NCBI GenBank assembly: GCA_002731775.1
Contig: PCCP01000082.1
Coordinates: 2,091 to 66,090 of the forward strand
Length of the DNA: 64,000 nt
Direction of reading: 5' to 3'
Origin: Gammaproteobacteria bacterium
Lineage (GTDB): Bacteria; Pseudomonadota; Gammaproteobacteria; Pseudomonadales; Pseudohongiellaceae
The first letter of the stretch is position 1. Every line of letters starts with the position of its first letter. The translations under genes and the position numbers were made by a program. Under the pieces are notes generated by a model. That model saw only the letters and a program-made list of their open reading frames with translations, did no database searches and was not told where the DNA came from. This document shows, in pieces, positions 3,147-63,875 of the stretch.

Positions 3147-5147
3147 TTGAATAATCGATTCAGATTACGCGTAATCGCTTTAACGGGTCTGCTGTTTACG
3201 GGCTTGGCCCTGATCAGCAGCACGATTCTAGCCCAGCAGGGCGCTACCGATGGTGAATGGCGCAGCTACGCCGGCGGCACAGGCAGCTCCAAGTACACGG
3301 CGTTGGACCAGATCGATGCCGACAACGTCGAAAACCTGCGTGTCGCCTGGCAGTGGCAATCGGTGGATGGGCGCTTCGATCTGCAGCAGCTGACGCAGGA
3401 ATATCCAAACCTGCGGGTTGCCAACGACGTCGATGTCGTGCGCATAGCCAACCTCAAGGCGACGCCGCTAATGGTGGGCGGCGTTCTCTATATCTCCACC
3501 CCTTTATCCCAGATCGCGGCGATCGAGGCTGCCACCGGCGAAACTCTCTGGACCCATGATCCGCGCGCCTATGCCTCTGGCATTCCCACCATGATGCTGG
3601 GCTTCAGTAACCGCGGCCTGGCCTATTGGAGCGACGGTGAACAGGGGCGGTTAATCATGGGTACCGGCGACGCCTTCCTGGTCGCGCTGGATACCAACAG
3701 TGGAGAACCGATTCCAGGTTTCGGCACTGACGGCCGGGTCGACCTGGTAGTCGGCATACCCAGGGCCCGCAGATCCCCGGCGCCGATAAATTACTCCATT
3801 ACCTCGGCCCCCACTGTGTGCGGGGACGTGATTGTTGTGGGCTCCGCGGTCTCAGACCAGCCCTACCTGCGCGAGGCGCCCCCGGGATATGTGCGCGGCT
3901 TCGATGCCCGCAGCGGCGAGCTGCTGTGGACCTTTCACACCATCCCCCAACCGGGAGAGTATGGTCACGAAACCTGGCTTGATGATTCCTGGCAGTACAC
4001 CGGCAACGTCAACGTCTGGACCATGATGAGCGCCGATGAAGAGCTCGGCTATGTCTACCTGCCAATTGGCAACGCCACCAACGATCACTATGGTGGGCAT
4101 CGGCCCGGAAATCATCTGTTCGCCAATTCACTGGTGGCCCTGGATTGCACCACGGGTGAGCGGGTGTGGCACTTCCAGATGGTACATCACGATCTTTGGG
4201 ACTACGATCCGCCGGCTGCTCCCAACCTCATCGACATCACCGTGGACGGAAGGGCCATCAAAGCCGTCGCCCAGGTGACCAAGCATGCCTTTACTTTTGT
4301 GTTCGATCGCGAGACCGGCGAACCGGTGTGGCCAATCGAAGAGCGACCAGTTGCCGCCTCCGATGTGCCGGGTGAGTGGACTTCTGAGACCCAACCCTTT
4401 CCTACCAAGCCGCCTGCCTATGATCTTCAGGGAGTCACTGTCGATGATCTTATCGAATTCACCCCCGAGCTGCGGGCCGAGGCCATCGAGATTCTGGCGA
4501 CTTATCGAAGCGGACCCATTTTTATACCGCCTTCTCTTATCGAAGACGGGCCGGACGGCACCCAGGGCACCATCGAAATGCCAGGCTACACCGGCGGTAC
4601 CAACTGGAATGGCGCGGCCATAGATCCGGAAACCGGCATTCTGTATGTGGCTTCTAGTACCTCACCGATTATTCCGCTGCTGGTGGTACCGGAGGAGGAA
4701 AACGCCACCCTTCGCTACGCCCGTGGCCCCATGCGCCCGCCCCAAGGGCCCGCGGGATTGCCTCTGTTCAAGCCGCCCTATGGCAGGATCACCGCCATCG
4801 ACCTCAACCGGGGAGAGATTATCTGGCAACGAGCCAATGGCATCGGTCCGCCGCGGGTGCGGGATCATCCAAGATTGGAGGGTCTGGAGTTGCCACCGCT
4901 AGGTGGAAACAGGGACCAGTTACTGGTCACCCAGACACTGCTGTTCTCGGGTCAGCAACAACCGAATGCAGATGGAACTTACCTGTTAACCGCCCGTGAC
5001 AAGGCCACCGGCGATGTCCTGGCAGAAATCCCATTGCCCGGAAGGGCGATAGGAGCACCGATGAGCTACATGGTCGGCGGCAGGCAATACATCGCTGTTA
5101 CCGTGCAGGGTGATATACCCCAGCTGGTTGCATTGGCGCTGGATTAA
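3147..5147 (+). CDS. PQQ-dependent quinoprotein dehydrogenase (glucose/alcohol dehydrogenase-type beta-propeller), exported
   Basis: 666-aa ORF, TTG start, signal peptide. Motifs WRSYAGGTGSSKYTALDQI, GERVWHFQMVHHDLWDYD, TGEPVWPIEE, PPYGRITAIDLNRGE. Clear paralog of 61935..63875. Confidence 0.85.
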   Translation: MNNRFRLRVIALTGLLFTGLALISSTILAQQGATDGEWRSYAGGTGSSKYTALDQIDADNVENLRVAWQWQSVDGRFDLQQLTQEYPNLRVANDVDVVRIANLKATPLMVGGVLYISTPLSQIAAIEAATGETLWTHDPRAYASGIPTMMLGFSNRGLAYWSDGEQGRLIMGTGDAFLVALDTNSGEPIPGFGTDGRVDLVVGIPRARRSPAPINYSITSAPTVCGDVIVVGSAVSDQPYLREAPPGYVRGFDARSGELLWTFHTIPQPGEYGHETWLDDSWQYTGNVNVWTMMSADEELGYVYLPIGNATNDHYGGHRPGNHLFANSLVALDCTTGERVWHFQMVHHDLWDYDPPAAPNLIDITVDGRAIKAVAQVTKHAFTFVFDRETGEPVWPIEERPVAASDVPGEWTSETQPFPTKPPAYDLQGVTVDDLIEFTPELRAEAIEILATYRSGPIFIPPSLIEDGPDGTQGTIEMPGYTGGTNWNGAAIDPETGILYVASSTSPIIPLLVVPEEENATLRYARGPMRPPQGPAGLPLFKPPYGRITAIDLNRGEIIWQRANGIGPPRVRDHPRLEGLELPPLGGNRDQLLVTQTLLFSGQQQPNADGTYLLTARDKATGDVLAEIPLPGRAIGAPMSYMVGGRQYIAVTVQGDIPQLVALALD

Positions 5148-22233: not shown

Positions 22234-24426
22234 ATGAAAACAAAAACACCATTATCGAGAATCACCCTTGCAGCTTGCCTGTTGGCCCTCGCGGCCTGCG
22301 GTCAGCCGGAGCAAGAAACCTCAGCTCAAGCTGAGCCAGTTGTCTCCGACGCGCCAGGTATCAGCTCCGATCAGAATGATATCGGGGGCGTCGTCACCAG
22401 TACTGACGGTCCTGAAGCCGGGGTATGGGTCATCGCCGAAACCGACGATTTACCAACTCTCTATTCAAAAACCGTTGTAACCGACGAGGACGGGCGCTAT
22501 CTCATGCCTGACCTGCCTGCGGCGCAGTATGACATTTGGGTGCGAGGTTACGGCCTGGTCGACTCGGAGAAAGTCAATGCCGTTCCCGGTCAATCCCTGG
22601 ATCTGAACGCGGTGATCGCGCCCGATGCCGCTGCGGCCGCTGCTTATTACCCTGCCGGGAACTGGTACTCGCTGTTGGAGATCCCGGCCAGGAGTGAATT
22701 TCCCGGTACCGGTGCGGACGGTAACGGTATTTCTCCCAATATTCACAACCAGGCTGACTTTATGCGGCGGGTGAGTAGCGGCGGCTGCCTGGCCTGTCAC
22801 CAGTTGGGCAACGCGGCAATCCGAAACATACCTGGCTTATTCAGTGGTTACGATACGTCAATTGAAGCCTGGGATCGTCGCGTGCGATCGGGCCAGGCCG
22901 GCGGCTCCATGAGCAGGGCCCTGGCCGGTATGGGTGGCCGAGCGCTGCAGATGTATGCCGACTGGACCGACCGGATTGCGGCCGGTGAGTTACCGCCGGT
23001 ACCGGAACGCCCTTCTGGCCTGGAACGCAACGTGGTCATTACCCAATGGGACTGGGCGGATCCCACCGCTTACCTGCACGATCTCGTTTCCACCGACAGG
23101 CGCGATCCGACCAGGAATGCTTACGGCAAAATCTATGGCGCCCTGGAAAACAGCGCGGATTATCTGCCGGTACTGGATCCCCAAACGAATACCATAGCCC
23201 AGATCCCAGTGTTCCCGGAAGACCCGGATTACAATCCCGAGCCGTCCCGTCCTATGGCGGAATCACCCTATTGGGGTGACGAACCGATCTGGGATGCCTC
23301 GACTACAGTACATAATCCCATGCTGGATCAGGATGGCAGAGTCTGGATCACTGCCCGGGCACGGGCCCCGCAAGATGTACCGGCGTTCTGCCAGGAAGGC
23401 TCCGATCACCCGTCTGCGCAGGCATTTCCATTGGGACGCTCCGGGCGACATCTCGGTGTCTATGATCCGGACACGGAAGTGTATACCCCGATCAATACCT
23501 GTTTCGGCACCCATCACCTGATGTTCGCCGAGGACGCAGACAATACCCTGTGGACCAGCGGCGGCGGCAGGGTGATCGGCTGGCTGAATACTCGCCAATA
23601 CCTGGAAACAGGCGATGCGGTGGCGGCTCAGGGGTGGACACCGTTCATTCTGGATACCAACGGCAACGGACGGCGGGACGAAGATTACGTTGAGCCGGAC
23701 CAAGCGGTTGACCCATCGCGGGACAAGCGCATCAACTCCGGTTTTTACGCCGTGTCGCCAGCGCCAGATGGGTCTGTGTGGGGCTCCAACCTCAGCTATC
23801 CCGGCGCCGTCGTGCGATTGATGCCGGGTGACGATCCCAGCGTTACCGCACTGACCGAATATTATGAACTGCCGCTCGATGCCAATGGCGATCCGATCGA
23901 GGGATTCTCGCCCCGCGGTATGGATGTCGACCGCAACGGTGTCGCCTGGGTAGCTCTGGCCAGTGGTCATATGGCGAGCTTCGACCGCTCCCTCTGCCAG
24001 GGTCCGTTGAACGGCCCGGAGGCGACAGGCCAGCACTGCGCGGAAGGCTGGACCTTCTATACCGAGCCACTGCCCCAGTTCAAGAATATCGATACGTCGG
24101 GCAGCTCCGAAGGCAGCTATTACACCTGGGTGGATCAGTTCGATACCTTCGGGCTGGGTGAAAACACGCCGATCAATACGGGAAATCAATCGGGCGCGCT
24201 GTTAGCGCTCAATGATGGCGAGTGGGTTCGCTTGCGGGTGCCTTATCCGTTGGGCTTCTACACCAAGTGGATTGATGGCCGTATAGATGACCCTGATGCT
24301 GGATGGAAAGGTCGTGGTTTGTGGACAACCTTTAGCAGCAGAGCGCCTTTTCATATGGAGACCGGTGCCGGGACATCGAGCAAGGTTTACCATTTTCAGA
24401 TGCGGCCTGACCCTTTAGCTAAATAG
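22234..24426 (+). CDS. lipoprotein with N-terminal carboxypeptidase-regulatory-like domain and a single heme-c motif
   Basis: 730 aa. Lipobox LLALAACGQ. GGVVTSTDGPEAGVWVIAETDD..TVVTDEDGRYLMPDLPAAQYDIWVRGYG. CXXCH = CLACH. Confidence 0.6.
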   Translation: MKTKTPLSRITLAACLLALAACGQPEQETSAQAEPVVSDAPGISSDQNDIGGVVTSTDGPEAGVWVIAETDDLPTLYSKTVVTDEDGRYLMPDLPAAQYDIWVRGYGLVDSEKVNAVPGQSLDLNAVIAPDAAAAAAYYPAGNWYSLLEIPARSEFPGTGADGNGISPNIHNQADFMRRVSSGGCLACHQLGNAAIRNIPGLFSGYDTSIEAWDRRVRSGQAGGSMSRALAGMGGRALQMYADWTDRIAAGELPPVPERPSGLERNVVITQWDWADPTAYLHDLVSTDRRDPTRNAYGKIYGALENSADYLPVLDPQTNTIAQIPVFPEDPDYNPEPSRPMAESPYWGDEPIWDASTTVHNPMLDQDGRVWITARARAPQDVPAFCQEGSDHPSAQAFPLGRSGRHLGVYDPDTEVYTPINTCFGTHHLMFAEDADNTLWTSGGGRVIGWLNTRQYLETGDAVAAQGWTPFILDTNGNGRRDEDYVEPDQAVDPSRDKRINSGFYAVSPAPDGSVWGSNLSYPGAVVRLMPGDDPSVTALTEYYELPLDANGDPIEGFSPRGMDVDRNGVAWVALASGHMASFDRSLCQGPLNGPEATGQHCAEGWTFYTEPLPQFKNIDTSGSSEGSYYTWVDQFDTFGLGENTPINTGNQSGALLALNDGEWVRLRVPYPLGFYTKWIDGRIDDPDAGWKGRGLWTTFSSRAPFHMETGAGTSSKVYHFQMRPDPLAK

Positions 24427-27634: not shown

Positions 27635-27694
27635 GAAAATAAATCTGTCCCTATTTACTATATACTTTTGTAATTAGGGACAGCTTTAATTTTG
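27635..27694. repeat. two R1-type half-sites in outward-facing arrangement
   Basis: GAAAATAAATCTGTCCCTATTTAC (27635-27658) and AATTAGGGACAGCTTTAATTTTG (27672-27694). Confidence 0.8.
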
Positions 27695-27712
27695 AATTCG
27701 AGGAATTTCCCG

Positions 27713-28831
27713 ATGAGAAGACTGCTTACCACTATTGCTTGCTTATTTATTGCCGCACCCTGCGCGCTCGCTCAATACGCCCCGCAGATTTCGATTGAAT
27801 CCGTTCCCGACTTCTTTCAGCTACCACAGGGTATGAATTTTGGTGAAGCCTCCGCCATCGCAGTGAATTCACAAGGCCATATTTTTGTATTTCACCGATC
27901 CAACCCCTCTGGGGGTGGCCCCGCTTATGGCATGCATGCTGCGCAGCTATTTGAATTTGATAGCAACGGCCGCTATCAACGAGAACTCGGGCGGGGCTTA
28001 TACGCCTGGTCGTTTGCCCACGGGCTGCGCATAGACAGCAACGACAACATCTGGACCGTGGACAAAGGTTCCAACATGGTGGTGCGCATGGACCCCTCCG
28101 GCAGGGTGGTGTGGGTGTTCGGCAGAAAGACAGAATCGGTATCCGAAGCGGCCCGACCCTTCGAACATGTGGACACACCCCGACCTCCCCAGGATGGCCG
28201 TTTTCGCGAGCCCACGGATGTGGCGGTTGATTCGGCAGGCAACATTTACATCACCGATGGCTATATCAATTCCCGCGTCGCCAAATATGATTACAATGGT
28301 GACTGGGTAAAATCCTGGGGCGAACCGGGAACCGGCCCCGGACAGTTTCGACTCCCCCATAGCATCGCCATCGACAAGGCTGACAACGTCTATGTGGGGG
28401 ATCGTTCCAATGCCCGCATTCAAGTGTTCGACACCGATGGCAATTACCTGCGTGAATTCCGCGTAGCCACCCCGGTGCGTCCTGGCTCGAAGGCGGTTAA
28501 CGGACCCACGCCTACCGAACTCACCGAGATCAGTGCCAACGGCGCCCCCAATTCTTTGTGTATCCCACCGGGCAGCGACGTGATCTTCGTCGGGGAAACC
28601 ACTTTTCCAGGACGCATTATCAAAGCGACCTTACAGGGAGAGGTGCTGGGAGTCATTGGTAATTCAGGTAGGAATCTGGGAGAATTTTCTGGTGCCCATG
28701 GCCTCGCCTGCCCGTCAGAAGACGTTTTGTATGTGGCAGAGACGTCTAATTCTCGAGCGCAGAAGTTGCTTATTGGGGAACAGGGACAGATTTATTTTCC
28801 TGGGCGGGAGCGTCAGCGCTTCAAAAAATAA
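27713..28831 (+). CDS. exported NHL-repeat six-bladed propeller, peptidyl-alpha-hydroxyglycine lyase (PAL)-like
   Basis: Start moved to ATG 27713 (MRRLLTTIACLFIAAPCALA). NHL repeats: HGLRIDSNDNIWTVDKGSNMVVRMD, PTDVAVDSAGNIYITDGYINSRVAKYD, PHSIAIDKADNVYVGDRSNARIQVFD. The last 17 codons lie inside a repeat element. Confidence 0.7.
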   Translation: MRRLLTTIACLFIAAPCALAQYAPQISIESVPDFFQLPQGMNFGEASAIAVNSQGHIFVFHRSNPSGGGPAYGMHAAQLFEFDSNGRYQRELGRGLYAWSFAHGLRIDSNDNIWTVDKGSNMVVRMDPSGRVVWVFGRKTESVSEAARPFEHVDTPRPPQDGRFREPTDVAVDSAGNIYITDGYINSRVAKYDYNGDWVKSWGEPGTGPGQFRLPHSIAIDKADNVYVGDRSNARIQVFDTDGNYLREFRVATPVRPGSKAVNGPTPTELTEISANGAPNSLCIPPGSDVIFVGETTFPGRIIKATLQGEVLGVIGNSGRNLGEFSGAHGLACPSEDVLYVAETSNSRAQKLLIGEQGQIYFPGRERQRFKK

Positions 28832-28846
28832 ATCTGTCCCTATTTA
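28781..28846. repeat. R1-type palindromic element (long form)
   Basis: CAGGGACAGATTTATTTTCCTGGGCGG ... AAAAAATAAATCTGTCCCTATTT. The left arm lies inside CDS 27713..28831. Confidence 0.85.
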
Positions 28847-28875
28847 GAAATTGTGTGTTCAGAGAGGTAGACGAT

Positions 28876-29265
28876 ATGAAGTTTGTGAATAGCCTGGCGC
28901 TTCGAGTACTCGTCGCAGCGGGATTCCTGTTTGCCATTCAGCCCACGATCGCGCACCACTCCTTCGCGGGTTTCAGCAATGATGAAGTCAAGGAGTTCAC
29001 GGGCATCATCAAGGAATTTCAATTCAGGAATCCCCACGTATGGATTCAGATCCTGACAGCAAACGCGGAAGGGCAGGAAGAGGAATGGAGCGTCGAGTGG
29101 GGCTCCCCAAATCAGTTGGGACGGCGCGGTATTCGTCCGACAACGTTTCCACCGGGGGCCGAGGTCACCGTGCGGATCCGACCGATGATCAACGGCTCTG
29201 CGGCCGGCGCGTTCGTCGGAGCCAAGTTTCCCGACGGTACCATCGTCGGCCAATGGGAAGACTAG
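28876..29265 (+). CDS. small exported protein, predicted mature N-terminus HHSFA (DUF6152-like by recollection)
   Basis: Start moved to ATG 28876. MKFVNSLALRVLVAAGFLFAIQPTIA then HHSFAGF. Shares an NPH block (FRNPHVWI) with 30863..31240. Confidence 0.7.
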   Translation: MKFVNSLALRVLVAAGFLFAIQPTIAHHSFAGFSNDEVKEFTGIIKEFQFRNPHVWIQILTANAEGQEEEWSVEWGSPNQLGRRGIRPTTFPPGAEVTVRIRPMINGSAAGAFVGAKFPDGTIVGQWED

Positions 29266-29343
29266 AGCGGTAAACGCTGTTCCCCAGTGCACGCCCTTGC
29301 TGCGTCGTCTTTTTAAAGCGGATGGGTTTTTGCAGGTACGGCC

Positions 29344-30255
29344 ATGCATGGGAGGGGCCGTCCGAACGGTAGCGAAACCATGGAGAAACGGATTGTCATG
29401 ACGGTTACATTAAGACACAGGCACAACACTCTGCGCCCATTTCAAACGGCAAGCGCCCTGCTTGTGAGTCTGGGCATAATTATCCTGCTCCTACCGAAAG
29501 CTGGTTACGCGCAAGAGGGAGATTCTCTCCCCGACTGGAGCGGCGTTTGGGCCATGAACGGTGGAACGGTCTTCGACCGAGCCACAGTTGAGGGCCGGGG
29601 CGGATCGAACACGCCGGGCGTGCGAGAACATCCGCCGTACAACGCAGAATATGAGGCGACGTATGTACGCAACCTGCAGCTTCGTGATGACGGATTGTTC
29701 CCGGATCCCTTATCCTTCTGCGGGATTCCTCCCGGGTTCCCGCGGATCATGAATATGCCTGATGTTTACGAGTTCGCGGTGACCCCCAAACAAGTCTGGA
29801 TCATGACTGAAAATGGACCGGGTATCCTGAGGATCTACACAGATGGCCGCGAACATCCGGATCCTGAGATGATGTGGCCCACTCATACCGGGGATTCGGT
29901 AGGGCATTGGGAAGGCGATACGCTGGTGTTCGACACGGTAAGTCTTCACAGTTCGGTCGAGGGCCGGACGATCCTTGATCGCACGGGCCTGTACCTGAGC
30001 GATGCGGCACACATCGTCACGCGAATGCGTAAGCTTGACGACGAAACAATAGAAGCCCAGATGACGATAGAAGACCACAAGGCTCTGACGGCGCTATGGG
30101 TCGTGACCAAGACGTACCGGAAACTGGAGGAGGAAACGCGTGTGTACGACTACGCTTGCGCCGGGAACAACCGAAATCCAGTGGATGTAGAAAACAACCG
30201 GACGCTGATTCTGGGCCCCGACGGGGAAATTCTAAACAGCGATATTCAGCGTTAG
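29344..30255 (+). CDS. short divergent relative of the YEYACHEGNY family (ends VYDYACAGNN)
   Basis: 303-aa ORF (start may be ATG 29398). LPDWSGVWAM, FCGIPPGFP, GDSVGHWEGDTLVFDT, VYDYACAGNNRN parallel the family blocks. Confidence 0.7.
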   Translation: MHGRGRPNGSETMEKRIVMTVTLRHRHNTLRPFQTASALLVSLGIIILLLPKAGYAQEGDSLPDWSGVWAMNGGTVFDRATVEGRGGSNTPGVREHPPYNAEYEATYVRNLQLRDDGLFPDPLSFCGIPPGFPRIMNMPDVYEFAVTPKQVWIMTENGPGILRIYTDGREHPDPEMMWPTHTGDSVGHWEGDTLVFDTVSLHSSVEGRTILDRTGLYLSDAAHIVTRMRKLDDETIEAQMTIEDHKALTALWVVTKTYRKLEEETRVYDYACAGNNRNPVDVENNRTLILGPDGEILNSDIQR

Positions 30256-30260
30256 GGGAA

Positions 30261-30284
30261 GAGAGTACAGGGTCAGGTCTTGCC
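30261..30284. repeat. R3-type half-site (direct copy of 27269-27292)
   Basis: GAGAGTACAGGGTCAGGTCTTGCC, 8 nt before the RAYT fragment. Confidence 0.85.
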
Positions 30285-30292
30285 CACTGCCG

Positions 30293-30376
30293 ATGACCAA
30301 TCACTACGATCTATTGATCGAAACGCCCGATGCGAATCTTTCTGTGGGAATGCGCCATCTCAATGGCGTTCACACC
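30293..30376 (+). pseudogene. internal fragment of a RAYT/Y1 transposase (HUH region)
   Basis: MTNHYDLLIETPDANLSVGMRHLNGVHT matches LMTNHYHLL.ETP..NLS.GMR.LNG.YT of this transposase family. HUH is degraded to H-Y-D. Similarity ends about 30376 where the IS3 stub begins. Confidence 0.7.
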
Positions 30377-30384
30377 CTGCCCAG

Positions 30385-30714
30385 TCAGACTTTTTTAAGC
30401 CAGTTGTTGCGCGAGTACAATTCAGCGACAACTTGTTTGAGGTCATTGTTTTCCTTCTTGAGATCCACCACTTTATCACTGCTGGCTTCACGAACGGTAT
30501 CACCAGACAAACGTTTCTTTCCGGCTTCAAGAAACTCTTTGCTCCCTCGGTAATAGAGATTGGCGTTGATCCCTTCACGACGGCATAACTCTGCCATCGA
30601 ATACTCACCCCGTAATCCGTCTAGCACAATGCGGATTTTCTCTTCGGACGAAAACTTGCGTCGAGTATTACGGCGAATATCCTTGACGTATTTTTCGGTG
30701 TTTGACATGCTCAT
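30385..30714 (-). mobile_element. IS3-family orfA (HTH transposase part) stub; orfB missing
   Basis: MSMSNTEKYVKDIRRNTRRKFSSEEKIRIVLDGLRGEYSMAELCRREGINANLYYRGSKEFLEAGKKRL.. is typical IS3/IS911-type OrfA. AGAGGAG RBS. An A6G run lies 3 nt before the stop. No orfB follows. Confidence 0.75.
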
Positions 30715-30862
30715 TTCGAGACTCCTCTGCTTCACATTAAAATAGCAGATATGTCTCTTAGTGAATTAGGCTAAATGGTCTAATATGGGCTGACGGCGAA
30801 CACTTGTATATTAGCCAGATTATGGAAATTCCCGTCTTTTAGGGGAATTCTGGGGAAATGCC

Positions 30863-31240
30863 ATGAGGATACTCATTAATTGTCTGACCCTACTCGGTCT
30901 GATTACTCATGTGATGAATGCCGCAGCCCATCACAGTTTTGCTGCAGAATTTTCCTATGAACTGTTCGGCACCAAAGACGGCGAAGTTGTCGAGGTGCAC
31001 TACGTTAATCCTCATACCCGCGTTTTCATCGCCGTCACCAATGAGAACGGTGAAAAAGAAATATGGGATGCACAGACCCATGCCGTCAGCATGCTGCTCC
31101 GCGCTGGCTGGAGAAGGGACACTCTCAAGGTAGGTGAAAGAGTTATGCTCCAGGGCAACCTGGGACTAGAAAATAGTCGAAAGTTGTGGATCAGGACGAT
31201 GACCCTGGAAAACGGCACCGTCATTACACCTGATGATTGA
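30863..31240 (+). CDS. small exported protein, predicted mature N-terminus HHSFA (second copy)
   Basis: 125 aa. MRILINCLTLLGLITHVMNAAA then HHSFAAEF. NPH block YVNPHTRVF. Paralog of 28876..29265. Confidence 0.7.
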   Translation: MRILINCLTLLGLITHVMNAAAHHSFAAEFSYELFGTKDGEVVEVHYVNPHTRVFIAVTNENGEKEIWDAQTHAVSMLLRAGWRRDTLKVGERVMLQGNLGLENSRKLWIRTMTLENGTVITPDD

Positions 31241-31253
31241 GGAGTAAGTAATA

Positions 31254-31526
31254 GTGAAGAATAAGGCGAGTATTCTCGGATTCTTTCTCACGCTTGTACT
31301 GACGAGTAGCTGCCTGGCCCAGTTGCAGGGTGAATGGCTGCTGACGGTGAATCATGGTATAGAGCGTCTGTGCTTGCTTACCTTCGGAGGCAGTGACGGC
31401 GAGCTGGAAGTTTTTGTGGATGGTGGGCCGGTCGATTTTGTCCTGGAAGGCAACACCCTAGAAATGGACGTTGATTACCGTGATGGCGGCGGCAGGCTCC
31501 TCAGCGAGCATTTCACCAGCACGTAA
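31254..31526 (+). CDS. hypothetical small exported protein
   Basis: 90-aa GTG ORF 13 nt after the previous gene. Signal MKNKASILGFFLTLVLTSSCLA. Confidence 0.4.
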   Translation: MKNKASILGFFLTLVLTSSCLAQLQGEWLLTVNHGIERLCLLTFGGSDGELEVFVDGGPVDFVLEGNTLEMDVDYRDGGGRLLSEHFTST

Positions 31527-61934: not shown

Positions 61935-63875
61935 TTGAAAAATAAAATTCTACCGCTTACTTGCTTCACTATTTCTCTCTCCTTTTTGTTCACCTACTCG
62001 GCAATTACACAAGCTGCTGAAGTCAACTCTGCCTGGAGCTACTGGGGCGCAACCAAGGCGTTCAATCGCTACTCCCCGGCAGCTCAGATCGATGCTGAAA
62101 GCGTATCTGAGCTGAAAATCCTCTGGCGGCGCCCCGCCGTCGATTCCTCAATAATGAGGGCCTACCCGGAATTGCGGGTATCCGGCAATCTGCGCTCCAC
62201 GCCGATCCTGATCGATGGGGTGCTCTACGCCGCCAATGGTGTCGGCCTGGCAGAGGCCTTCGACCCAGCCACGGGCGCGACCCTGTGGGTGCAGCTGCCC
62301 GATGCCCCTACGCAGGAATCGGTGCGCGGGGGCAGTACCCGCGGCCTGGAATACTGGGCCGATGGCTCTGATAGCCAGCTGCTGGTGATTCGCAAGGGCT
62401 ACCTCTATGCCCTGGATCCGGCGAGCGGCAAAGCCATTCCCCGTTTCGGTGACGCTGGCCGGGTTAGTCTGATTCCAGCGGGCGCCCATTCCTACAGCTA
62501 CAATTCTGGCGGGCCCATCGTGGTGAACGATGTGATTGTGGTTGCCGGTACGGTTGACGGCGCTGGCGACAGCGGTGCCAAGTGGCGGGGCGTGGCCTCG
62601 GAGGACGTGCGGGGTTACGACGTACGAAGCGGGGAGCTATTGTGGACATTTCACGCGGTGCCGCAGGAGGGTGAATTTGGATTCGACACCTGGGAAAACG
62701 ACTCCGCAAGAGAGTCCGGTGACCTCGGTGCCTGGTGCTGCCTGAGTGCAGACGAGGATCTTGGCTATGTGTATGTGCCTTTCACCGCGCCGACGGCCGC
62801 CTATTACGGTGGCCACCGCCCCGGGGACAACCTCTATTCCAATAGCCTGGTGGCCATCGATGTGACTACCGGGGAACGAGTCTGGCATTTCCAGATGGTG
62901 CATCATGACGTCTGGGAATACGACAATGTTGGCCCGCCGGTGCTGGGTGAGATCAACGTCGATGGGCGCACCATCAAGGCGGTAATGCAGGCCAACAAGA
63001 CCGGCTGGGTGTATGTGTTCGATCGGGTCACGGGCGAACCGGTGTGGCCTATTGAGGAGCTGCCGGTGCCACAGTCCGGCACGCCCGGCGAAGTGATGTC
63101 GCCTACCCAGCCCTTCCCCACCCGGCCGGCACCGATTGCGAGCCAGGGTGTTAGCCAGGCGGACATCATCGACTTCCCGGAAGTGGGCCAGATCGCCCGG
63201 GCGACGGTCGCGAATTTTGTGATCGGCCCTATCTTCACGCCTCCGTCTATTGCCAGTGACGAAGTGGGTAGCACCCAGGGCACACTGACACTGCCGGGCT
63301 CTTGGGGCTCGGCGAACTGGAACACCGGCGCCTTCGATCCGGTGACCGGCTATTACTACGGCTTCGCCAATGACATTCCCCGGGTTTACCGTCTGCAACT
63401 GGCCACCCAGGACGATGCCGAGATGGATTACTGGAGCCCCAATCGCGAAGCGCCTTATATCGATGGCATCCCGCTCACCAAACCACCCTGGGGTCGGATC
63501 ACCGCGATTGACATGAATCGTGGCGAACATGTGTGGCAAGTGGCTAACGGGGATTCCCTCAGTGATCACCGGTTACTGGCCGATCTCGATCTGCCGACCC
63601 TGGGCATCGCCAGCCGGCCGGTGGCGCTGGTCACCAGCACGCTGCTATTTATAGGCGAAGGCAGCAACCTGCACGGTGGGATCCAGCCCAATATGTGGGG
63701 AAGGATGTTCAAGGCCTATGACAAGTTGACCGGTGAGTTGCTTTGGGAGATGGAGTTACCCTCGGCAACCACAGGGGGACCTATGAGCTACATGCACGGG
63801 GACAAGCAGTACATCGTAGTAGCGCTGGGAAGTTTGGGTGGTGCTGCAGAGTGGGTGGCATTGGGGCTGCCTTGA
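61935..63875 (+). CDS. PQQ-dependent quinoprotein dehydrogenase (second paralog), exported
   Basis: 646 aa, TTG start, signal peptide. GERVWHFQMVHHDVWEYD, TGEPVWPIEE, PPWGRITAIDMNRGE. Confidence 0.85.
   Translation: MKNKILPLTCFTISLSFLFTYSAITQAAEVNSAWSYWGATKAFNRYSPAAQIDAESVSELKILWRRPAVDSSIMRAYPELRVSGNLRSTPILIDGVLYAANGVGLAEAFDPATGATLWVQLPDAPTQESVRGGSTRGLEYWADGSDSQLLVIRKGYLYALDPASGKAIPRFGDAGRVSLIPAGAHSYSYNSGGPIVVNDVIVVAGTVDGAGDSGAKWRGVASEDVRGYDVRSGELLWTFHAVPQEGEFGFDTWENDSARESGDLGAWCCLSADEDLGYVYVPFTAPTAAYYGGHRPGDNLYSNSLVAIDVTTGERVWHFQMVHHDVWEYDNVGPPVLGEINVDGRTIKAVMQANKTGWVYVFDRVTGEPVWPIEELPVPQSGTPGEVMSPTQPFPTRPAPIASQGVSQADIIDFPEVGQIARATVANFVIGPIFTPPSIASDEVGSTQGTLTLPGSWGSANWNTGAFDPVTGYYYGFANDIPRVYRLQLATQDDAEMDYWSPNREAPYIDGIPLTKPPWGRITAIDMNRGEHVWQVANGDSLSDHRLLADLDLPTLGIASRPVALVTSTLLFIGEGSNLHGGIQPNMWGRMFKAYDKLTGELLWEMELPSATTGGPMSYMHGDKQYIVVALGSLGGAAEWVALGLP

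Follow-up and report, generated by a model that had tools for sequence, protein, structure and literature searches.

DUF6152 proteins with a predicted His-His amino terminus form a two-gene module with YxYAC-family proteins and may carry a periplasmic metal site

Synteny and natural gene fusions show that proteins of the family DUF6152 do not act alone and are dedicated accessories of exported YxYAC-family proteins. Two DUF6152 genes were found in the gammaproteobacterial DNA stretch analysed here (64,000 nucleotides, hereafter the window; Table 1), and their products might be periplasmic OB-fold proteins with a putative metal site at a histidine tip that serve as accessories of a partner protein, a description to which we give about an even chance. 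Because a His-His start, an OB fold and a near-constant barrel partner occur together, DUF6152 and the YxYAC protein represent a strong candidate for a new metal-binding pair. Putative metal binding by DUF6152 is plausible; copper specifically has no support.

Table 1. Coordinates of the DUF6152 and YxYAC-family features within the window.
Feature	Coordinates	Strand	Description
DUF6152 copy 1	28876-29265	+	129 aa; ORF, Pfam PF19649, AF2 OB fold
Copy 1 predicted signal peptide	28876-28953	+	MKFVNSLALRVLVAAGFLFAIQPTIA
Short YxYAC-family partner	29344-30255	+	303-aa ORF; family HMM 247.9 bits
DUF6152 copy 2	30863-31240	+	125 aa; ORF, Pfam PF19649
Copy 2 predicted signal peptide	30863-30928	+	MRILINCLTLLGLITHVMNAAA
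YxYAC-family truncated remnant	31254-31526	+	90-aa ORF downstream of copy 2

Judged by their profile scores, both copies are genuine members of Pfam DUF6152, membership being defined as a score above the 27-bit gathering threshold over most of the model. Copy 1 reached 88.4 bits (E 3.5e-25, model positions 7-96 of 98) and copy 2 69.3 bits (E 3.2e-19, model positions 3-87 of 98), and DUF6152 was the sole family matched in the Pfam search. Since these scores are far above 27 bits, the family name that a first-pass annotation of this DNA had tentatively given is correct, and its description of signal peptides ending in TIA or AAA directly before HHSFA, with a second shared histidine in an NPH block, agrees with the reading frames. 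Copy 1, whose ATG is preceded by the ribosome-binding site GAGAGG, has the junction QPTIA/HHSFAGF with the His1 codon at 28954 and the NPH block FRNPHVWI, in which the histidine is mature residue 28, while copy 2 has the junction MNAAA/HHSFAAEF with the His1 codon at 30929 and the block YVNPHTRVF. The two proteins share 28% identity over 95 residues (E 8e-12) and are hence distant paralogs; their motifs, length and signal peptides are typical for the family. A scan for promoters and terminators returned fewer sites than in shuffled sequence.

The family is large, with 13,229 clusters at 50% identity matching at E<=1e-3, and eight copies are present in this 3.5-Mb genome. Conservation was analysed in 150 DUF6152 representatives, each taken from a different 50%-identity cluster. 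The alanine at position -1 was conserved in 90%, His1 and His2 each in 97%, Ser3 in 92%, the three residues of the NPH motif in 96, 99 and 99%, Trp71 in 96% and Glu74 in 95% of them, and the complete seven-residue HH-NPH-W-E pattern was identical in 129 of the 150. In all representatives that carry His-His (145/145), this pair directly follows an h-region of hydrophobic residues and a -3/-1 site of small ones. In the genome itself, Ala or Gly before HH as well as the NPH block are kept in all eight paralogs at only 25-30% identity. Cutting by signal peptidase I after such an A-x-A-type site leaves a chain that begins NH2-His-His-Ser, and sequence rules together with the family-wide conservation predict this start for both copies. 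The earlier suggestion of export with histidine as mature residue 1, the feature expected of a histidine brace, is thereby borne out by sequence inference for both genes and across the family. The invariant histidine at residue 2 had been overlooked in the first-pass annotation. DUF6152 is named in no paper found by our literature search, and neither the Pfam entry, nor PDB sequence and profile searches, nor the literature yielded a description of its function or structure.

The AF2 model of copy 1 (pLDDT 93, pTM 0.83) has the element order beta1-beta2-beta3-helix-beta4-beta5 that defines an OB fold, with strands at residues 13-23, 30-36 and 42-48, a helix at 52-57 and strands at 70-78 and 84-91. 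The NPH block is located between beta1 and beta2, and Glu48 stands at the end of beta3, which would pair it with residue 30 in the hairpin. The first ten residues are the least confident part of the model, with a mean pLDDT of 74. OB-fold proteins filled the top 50 PDB matches in Foldseek, albeit at E values of only about 2e-3, the best being Rim1/SSB and the N-domain of LysRS with TM about 0.55. On the basis of this model we are confident that DUF6152 adopts an OB fold, which sets it apart from LPMO, CopC and YcnI with their Ig-like architecture. Copy 1 matched nothing in a PDB sequence search, and the Lap adhesin, the sole hit of the PDB profile search, was rejected as repeat noise without NPH. 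Among known periplasmic proteins, CusF/SilF is likewise a small five-stranded OB barrel that hands metal to a partner, and CusF binds Cu(I)/Ag(I) through barrel-face residues (Met, His and Trp) and not at the N-terminus. However, DUF6152 has no conserved Met motif, and CusF was not among its 50 best Foldseek matches.

The reading frames confirm a gap of 78 nt between the end of copy 1 and the ATG (29344) of a YxYAC-family gene. A more probable start of this gene is the ATG at 29398, because GGAG is found 11 nt upstream of it, and the mature protein is predicted to start with QEGDSLPDWSGVW at 29512. The 303-aa protein ends in YDYACAGNN (C-terminal end YDYACAGNNRNP), and its two invariant cysteines probably form a disulfide. 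Neither Pfam nor NCBIfam gave a match, i.e. the family is without a Pfam model. In the AF2 model (pLDDT 87.8) the best fold matches were CRBP1, SAHS, UnaG and CRABP2, all of them weak (E 3e-3 or weaker; TM 0.31-0.36 on the query and 0.50-0.60 on the target), which weakly suggests an FABP-like beta-barrel. This barrel lacks any conserved His, Met or additional Cys by which a metal acceptor could be recognised, and a comparison of YxYAC genes paired or unpaired with DUF6152 revealed no partner-specific metal ligands, the differences following subfamily only.

The pairing of the two families is strongly supported. YxYAC-family genes account for 41 of about 3,300 genes in the genome, and one of them adjoins each of the eight DUF6152 genes (in the case of copy 2 as the 90-aa remnant). 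Moreover, an adjacent YxYAC-family gene on the same strand was found at 80/80 DUF6152 loci from Acidobacteriota and Gammaproteobacteria, a set that is biased toward the copy-1 subfamily because it was gathered with a copy-1-type rather than a diverse alignment. This answers the call of the first-pass annotation for a co-occurrence check of HHSFA and YxYAC genes, and together with 11 natural DUF6152-YxYAC fusions it makes the case for a two-gene module far stronger than that annotation had made it. Relatives with 96% and 88% identity share with the window the DUF6152-YxYAC pair alone and not the flanking genes. The NHL propeller gene directly upstream of copy 1 is not conserved in these relatives and was therefore not counted in the module. 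Copy 1 and its partner form an intact cassette (28876-30255).

DUF6152 forms the N-terminal part of all 11 fusions and the signal peptide followed by HH is kept, hence the free end is preserved. In outline this architecture resembles ZinT/YodA, which joins a mature N-terminus rich in His to a calycin-like periplasmic barrel within one domain and has its metal site on the barrel; the Pfam and fold searches gave no sequence or fold match to ZinT/YodA. It might also be possible that the free His-His end acts as a plug, which inserts into the pocket or channel of the partner and completes, gates or blocks a site there that may or may not hold metal. TIMPs, which have an OB fold and place the amine of Cys1 on the protease zinc, work in this way, as do serralysin inhibitors. 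The OB fold of DUF6152 with its apparently essential free N-terminus, the obligate partner and the uniform order of the fusions would fit such a role; however, the fusions are orthologs and probably go back to one event, neither conserved metal ligands nor protease-like motifs are seen in the partners, and the OB domain itself carries an invariant internal His and Glu, which points to a self-contained site. A plug therefore appears unlikely to us, even though the exchange of the partner around an invariant tip, as seen in a divergent subfamily, is consistent with it.

This HHGW subfamily of DUF6152 keeps the pattern AHHGW...GNPH...E, and a protein of this type is annotated in the culturable Thiohalophilus thiocyanatoxydans. 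In five of six contexts its gene lies 5-6 nt from a gene for a DUF6644-like four-helix membrane protein, and once it was found inside a FecCD/ABC transporter operon. The His-His/NPH core thus outlives a switch of partner from the YxYAC barrel to a DUF6644-like membrane protein. Among the small membrane partners 13/14 match DUF6644 and 5/14 match DUF2214. The Pfam CopD model matches one DUF6644-like member with 20.3 bits; hhalign gave no significant match between DUF6644-like proteins and a single CopD sequence, while a small CopD-family profile was aligned over 136 columns at a probability of 39% (E 3e-4), and this weak alignment lines up the His of TM1 and a C-terminal GR. From these profile comparisons the DUF6644-like partner is possibly CopD-like. 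In this regard the combination of an HHGW protein with a DUF6644-like gene parallels CopC-CopD and YcnI-YcnJ, in which a periplasmic protein with His1 is likewise linked to a membrane protein.

The first-pass annotation had considered a copper histidine brace of the LPMO, CopC or PmoB type. The known set comprises the LPMO families AA9-AA17, CopC, PmoB/PmoF1, X325/Bim1 and the mono-His brace of YcnI (PMC10952591). As predicted for DUF6152, a signal peptide exposes His1 in these proteins, and a second His is invariant in both cases; a carboxylate lies near the predicted DUF6152 site as it does in CopC and X325. In contrast, brace proteins are Ig-like or cupredoxin-like sandwiches, whereas DUF6152 is modelled as an OB fold and has an invariant His2 in addition. 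The Pfam search placed both copies in DUF6152 and in neither CopC nor any other copper family, and the OB topology of the AF2 model as well as the lack of a Pfam or PDB sequence/profile relative separate them from LPMO, CopC, X325 and YcnI.

The gene neighbourhood likewise offers no backing for copper. No conserved metal-responsive regulator, metal transporter or pump, or cuproenzyme was found beside the DUF6152-YxYAC pair, nor any copper gene context around it. The immediate upstream neighbours are mixed (DUF885 in 7, Abhydrolase_10 in 5 and a TonB receptor in 3 of 72). A TonB receptor, YxYAC and DUF6152 genes follow each other as an operon in some Acidobacteriota, an order that clusters in 13/80 loci; as part of the module the receptor was rejected, being directly upstream in only 3/72. 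Catabolic flanking genes are frequent, among them hydrolases, LigB and PhyH dioxygenases, tannase and PQQ dehydrogenases, the latter adjoining the pair at loci L010, L014, L018 and L021. DUF6152 is expanded in organisms whose periplasmic redox enzymes are numerous, and the genome analysed here encodes many periplasmic oxidoreductases, including about 40 PQQ dehydrogenases. A PQQ gene is found within 2 kb of 7/41 YxYAC genes, where 2.6 would be expected, and of 0/8 DUF6152 genes; given the roughly 40 PQQ genes, an association with PQQ dehydrogenases was set aside as weak.

These features bear on the brace in both directions. Copper held by the amino group and side chain of His1 and by His28 would activate O2 or H2O2 as in LPMOs, and a small hydrophobic substrate in the FABP-like barrel of the partner would be oxidised, making the pair a two-subunit periplasmic oxygenase. 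An N-terminal His with a second invariant His fits the definition of a brace (PMC10952591), and the likeness of the partner to ligand-binding barrels, the often catabolic flanking genes and the abundance of periplasmic oxidoreductases would suit such an oxygenase. However, the OB fold is unlike that of every known brace protein, the invariance of His2 and Glu suggests a site of the chelate type, more saturated than an open, T-shaped catalytic centre, and DUF6152 genes are not enriched near PQQ genes. Furthermore, the partner of the HHGW subfamily is a membrane protein and not a barrel, and bacterial brace derivatives are mostly transport proteins (PMC10952591). A true copper brace is, hence, quite improbable in our view.

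It might also be considered that His-His, NPH and Glu bind no metal at all but an organic or anionic ligand such as haem, a quinone cofactor, or a phosphate or sulfate group, or that they cap the barrel structurally or in a pH-sensitive manner. The absence of a metal-homeostasis context, the expansion of the family in redox-enzyme-rich organisms and the only moderate confidence of the AF2 tip are compatible with this. On the other hand, the 97-99% joint conservation of three histidines at a processed N-terminus is a signature of proven N-terminal-His metalloproteins, and a structural cap would not require the predicted cleavage site to lie exactly before His1 in 145/145 cases. A non-metal role is consequently regarded as unlikely.

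We favour a metal site at the histidine tip of a partner accessory. The free amino terminus, His1, His2 and the NPH histidine in the beta1-beta2 loop could together form one divalent transition-metal site, which probably includes the invariant Glu at the end of beta3 beside the NPH loop; its chemistry would favour Cu(II) or Ni(II). The His-His tip may capture or present the metal ion, which would be handed to, or held against, the cargo pocket or membrane channel of the partner, a role of the chaperone or "angler" type rather than that of a free-standing enzyme. N-terminal histidines chelate metals irrespective of the fold (PMC10952591), and the secreted bacterial N-terminal-His proteins DUF4198, DUF6702 and the anglerases bind Ni, Co or Cu (PMC12537917). 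The Ni-binding DUF4198, DUF6702 and the anglerases Ang-1/Ang-2 were found by "signal strapping"; anglerases are appended to HupE/UreJ permeases and DUF4198 occurs near TonB receptors (PMC12537917). Like DUF6152, they are secreted, have His as mature residue 1 and a further conserved His, and metal capture with transfer to a partner has been proposed for them as we do here. However, they are beta-sandwiches with His1 in 65-79%, whereas DUF6152 is modelled as an OB fold with His1 and His2 in 97%, and its partners, an FABP-like barrel or a DUF6644-like membrane protein, differ from theirs. Neither DUF6152 copy belongs to these families by Pfam match or by fold, and DUF6152 is not named in the signal-strapping paper or its six supplements (PMC12537917).

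N-terminal-His metalloproteins, among them LPMOs, CopC and the nickel binders and "anglerases" reported in 2025, have changed the views of extracellular copper and nickel chemistry. To our knowledge, all known metalloproteins with His as the first mature residue are beta-sandwiches. DUF6152 could be a new structural class of them, an OB barrel gripping a transition metal that is passed to, or used on, a dedicated partner (an FABP-like barrel or a CopD-like small membrane protein), a proposal that we make tentatively and rate somewhat below an even chance. If true, these metalloproteins would gain an OB-fold member in which two N-terminal histidines are invariant, and a function would be assigned to two large orphan families, DUF6152 and YxYAC, at once. 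The pair would then rank among the largest periplasmic systems for metal handling so far overlooked in Acidobacteriota and environmental Gammaproteobacteria, and it would help to explain the management of metals or hydrophobic substrates in oxidoreductase-rich soil Acidobacteriota and marine Gammaproteobacteria.

Finally, copy 2 is by its sequence context an orphan whose own partner gene is reduced to the 90-aa stub, so that an adjacent same-strand YxYAC gene is present only in degenerate form. This truncation had also been overlooked. The stub shares 55% identity over 84 residues (E 1e-33) with the N-terminus of the 328-aa YxYAC protein at locus L021, where the order is DUF6152 of the copy-2 type, genes for 305 aa and 444 aa, the YxYAC gene and a PQQ dehydrogenase. 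Copy 2 is situated 607 nt downstream of the intact YxYAC gene, with an IS3 orfA stub between them. At loci L018-L020 the copy-2 orthologs lack a YxYAC gene within 6 kb; the pairing is thus not absolute. Orthologs of copy 2 with 64-92% identity occur in marine metagenomes and complete genomes.

The two-gene module that the first-pass annotation had suggested for the DUF6152 gene at 28876-29265 (copy 1) and its YxYAC-family neighbour is borne out by a conserved adjacency. In the 3.47-Mb genome that carries the window, 8/8 DUF6152 genes adjoin a YxYAC-family member, which is not expected by chance because only about 41 of the ~3,300 genes belong to this family; one copy lies at the end of contig C78, and its partner is represented there by the C-terminus (...GDTL...ITLYECTEANY) within the last 277 bases. 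When the copy-1 profile was searched against 185,579 species genomes and the best 80 loci were kept, mostly from Acidobacteriota (Terriglobia, Vicinamibacteria, Bryobacterales) and uncultured Gammaproteobacteria, the partner was adjacent on the same strand in 80/80 of them. The partner usually precedes the DUF6152 gene and tandem arrays of alternating partner and DUF6152 genes are common; the order of the window is shared only by its closest relatives (L023, L024) and by locus L092. The immediate upstream neighbours are heterogeneous and include no metal regulator or pump across the loci. Relatives at 96% and 88% identity have the pair in common with the window and not the flanking genes, which argues that DUF6152 and its partner move together as a cassette. 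An NHL-repeat propeller gene ends 44 nt upstream of copy 1; it is not kept beside the pair in these two relatives, and L013, L014 and L016 again have NHL or SGL propellers within a few kb. At L013 (5800-7000), the partner gene lies upstream of DUF6152 and is interrupted by a frameshift that probably stems from an error in long-read assembly; in its place, the gene caller annotated a 276-aa antisense ORF.

Moreover, natural DUF6152-YxYAC fusions of 330-350 aa were found in 11 loci, probably going back to a single event since they are orthologous. They consist of a signal peptide, the N-terminal DUF6152 domain (AHHGNFTYDG...NPH), a linker and the C-terminal partner domain ending in ...ECDLEAA.RYLQD. 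Sequence and comparison show both the conserved cassette and its fusions, and the latter indicate that both parts function as one unit with the His-His kept at the free end. A separate partner-DUF6152 pair is located a few kb from the fusion gene in the same loci.

Features of the DUF6152 cassettes and their surroundings (the first eight rows and the last refer to the window)
Feature	Position	Strand	Remarks
PQQ dehydrogenase genes	3147-5147, 61935-63875
730-aa gene	22234-24426		exported, lipoprotein-like; CarboxypepD_reg domain, CLACH haem-binding motif
NHL-repeat propeller	27692-28831
DUF6152 copy 1	28876-29265	+	129 aa
YxYAC-family partner	29344-30255 (likely true start 29398)	+	303 aa; ATG 78 nt after copy 1
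IS3 orfA stub	30385-30735	-	between partner gene and copy 2
DUF6152 copy 2	30863-31240	+	125 aa
Partner remnant (by comparison)	31254-31526	+	90 aa; directly after copy 2
Fusions	L054:1927-2925, L055:4144-5142, L069:5846-6907, L084:4028-5017		plus seven more loci
HHGW gene with membrane-protein gene	L103:4044-4911, L104:3516-4526, L105:5008-5921, L110:5001-5842, L111:5001-5840
HHGW operon	L104:3516-7678
DUF2282/MbnB/HvfC operon	L111:1645-3626		beside HHGW gene
Antisense ORF across copy 1	28840-29349	-	169 aa

The second DUF6152 gene (copy 2) is situated 607 nt 3' of the partner gene, past an IS3 orfA stub. The membership of both copies in DUF6152, which had been proposed tentatively, was established by Pfam PF19649 matches of 88.4 and 69.3 bits, respectively (cut-off 27 bits), and neither has an NCBIfam model. 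At 28% identity (E 8e-12) they are, judged by sequence, distant paralogs. Copy 2 has orthologs of 64-92% identity, many of them marine. In L021 and L022 the order is DUF6152, a 305-aa gene, a 444-aa gene, a partner-family gene (328 aa) and a PQQ dehydrogenase gene. The ORF directly after copy 2 shares 55% identity with the first 86 residues of this L021 partner and is, by comparison, a truncated partner remnant; the window thus holds an intact cassette and, beside it, a degraded cluster in which copy 2 is an orphan. The copy-2 orthologs in L018-L020 have no partner within 6 kb; two genes downstream of them lies an ortholog (87% identity) of the 730-aa window gene, and a multicopper oxidase follows 1.5 kb further.

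The AXA-type site followed by HHSFA and the NPH block, which had been read from both ORFs, are present. Each N-terminus comprises a short charged n-region, a hydrophobic core and a small-residue site (TIA in copy 1, AAA in copy 2) before HHSFA, with the His1 codon (mature numbering) at 28954 and 30929, respectively. The ATG of copy 1 is preceded at 8 nt by a good ribosome-binding site (GAGAGG); the antisense ORF in the GC-rich sequence across this copy was taken to be spurious. Cleavage before His1 was judged from family conservation. A profile search covering 1.84 billion cluster representatives yielded 13,229 clusters at E<=1e-3, of which 6,052 reached E<=1e-10. Among the best 150 mutually diverse representatives, Ala precedes the His-His in 90%, and His1 (97%), His2 (97%), Ser3 (92%) and the NPH block (N 96%, P 99%, H 99%) are conserved; further along the chain, a Trp (96%) and a Glu (95%) hardly vary. 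All seven residues of the HH-NPH-W-E pattern are identical in 129/150. Position -3 is A, V, L or S, and the His-His mostly follows 20-30 residues after the protein start. A strongly hydrophobic stretch directly N-terminal of it was found in 145/145 sequences with the motif, including 21 in which the called N-terminus is long and the start appears to be mis-called. The eight paralogs of the genome keep A/G|HH and NPH despite only 25-30% identity. Collectively, the conserved motif, the hydrophobic stretch and the paralogs argue for signal cleavage exactly before His1 as a predicted family-wide property, by which His1 would be exposed as the first mature residue. That this end forms a metal-holding tip working with a partner is, in our view, an evenly balanced proposition.

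An AlphaFold2 model of mature copy 1 (61-sequence alignment; pLDDT 93, pTM 0.83) gives an OB fold with strands at 13-23, 30-36 and 42-48, a helix at 52-57 and strands at 70-78 and 84-91. Foldseek against the PDB retrieved only generic OB domains (Rim1/SSB, LysRS N-domain; TM ~0.55, E ~2e-3), and neither sequence nor profile searches with DUF6152 gave a relative in the PDB. This model thus places DUF6152 outside the LPMO, CopC, X325 and YcnI structural families and outside the beta-sandwich families of the 2025 signal strapping paper (PMC12537917). The likeness to LPMOs and CopC drawn from the N-terminal histidine is not one of structural family. An LPMO-like oxygenase is considered less probable than a metal-holding tip, as is a TIMP-like plug. 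The NPH histidine is located in the loop joining strands 1 and 2, and the invariant Glu48 is the last residue of strand 3, so that the hairpin register would place it beside residue 30, adjoining this loop. Twelve residues precede strand 1, enough to fold back onto the NPH loop; the model has a beta-bridge at residue 7, and its first ten residues reach a mean pLDDT of only 74. The putative metal site would be formed by the amino terminus, His1/His2, His28 and perhaps Glu48.

The metal might then be handed from the tip to the partner. The latter matches no Pfam or NCBIfam model and is a short member of a family whose long members terminate in YEYACHEGNY, six of which occur elsewhere within the window. 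Two invariant cysteines suggest a disulfide. The model of the mature partner (pLDDT 87.8) gave best yet weak PDB matches to CRBP1, SAHS, UnaG and CRABP2, and no conserved His/Met/Cys set marking a metal-acceptor site was found in paired partners. A site for a non-metal ligand is regarded as less probable than the metal-holding tip.

In a sample of 200 families from the same class, only three further genomes carried DUF6152, as a divergent AHHGW...GNPH form (the HHGW subfamily, itself large with 4,324 matches), and these three have no YxYAC gene. The subfamily keeps His-His, NPH and Glu. In 5/6 contexts the HHGW gene is immediately adjacent to a gene for a ~155-aa four-helix membrane protein, at a distance of 5-6 nt in L110 and L111, and the gene directly downstream in the remaining context encodes a group II intron reverse transcriptase. 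As the tip is invariant despite the change of partner, the putative site seems to belong to the OB domain itself. Of the membrane proteins, 13/14 match DUF6644, and there are weak matches to DUF2214; their helix 1 has an invariant His. A profile-profile alignment (hhalign) with small CopD-family proteins (39% probability, E 3e-4, 136 columns) aligned this His, pointing to a possible distant CopD relative. The arrangement recalls CopC-CopD, YcnI-YcnJ and the anglerase-permease fusions. Furthermore, two DUF6644-like genes flank the DUF6152/YxYAC pair on contig C106 and in L021/L022. At L104 the operon that includes the HHGW gene also encodes a phosphate-type porin, a FecCD permease and an ABC ATPase, without a classical binding protein, and at L111 the HHGW gene lies beside an operon resembling those for peptide metallophores, with a Cys-rich 96-aa peptide and MbnB-like and HvfC-like genes.

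Copper is only one candidate metal. The N-terminal X-His motif binds Ni(II) well too. A preference for nickel has been described for DUF4198 (PMC12537917). Secreted proteins with a metal-binding N-terminal His are already known as a general kind (PMC10952591, PMC12537917), and our literature search found no paper mentioning DUF6152. If the metal site is true, the fold, the two histidines and the dedicated partner would be new among such proteins. The present analysis contributes the finding that copy 2 is an orphan, together with the heterogeneous flanks, the HHGW membrane-protein partner and a weak link to PQQ. PQQ-dependent dehydrogenases account for ~40 genes of the genome, with 61 Pfam PQQ matches, and its DUF6152 genes are not enriched near them; YxYAC genes show a weak enrichment, with 7/41 lying <=2 kb from a PQQ gene vs 2.6 expected.
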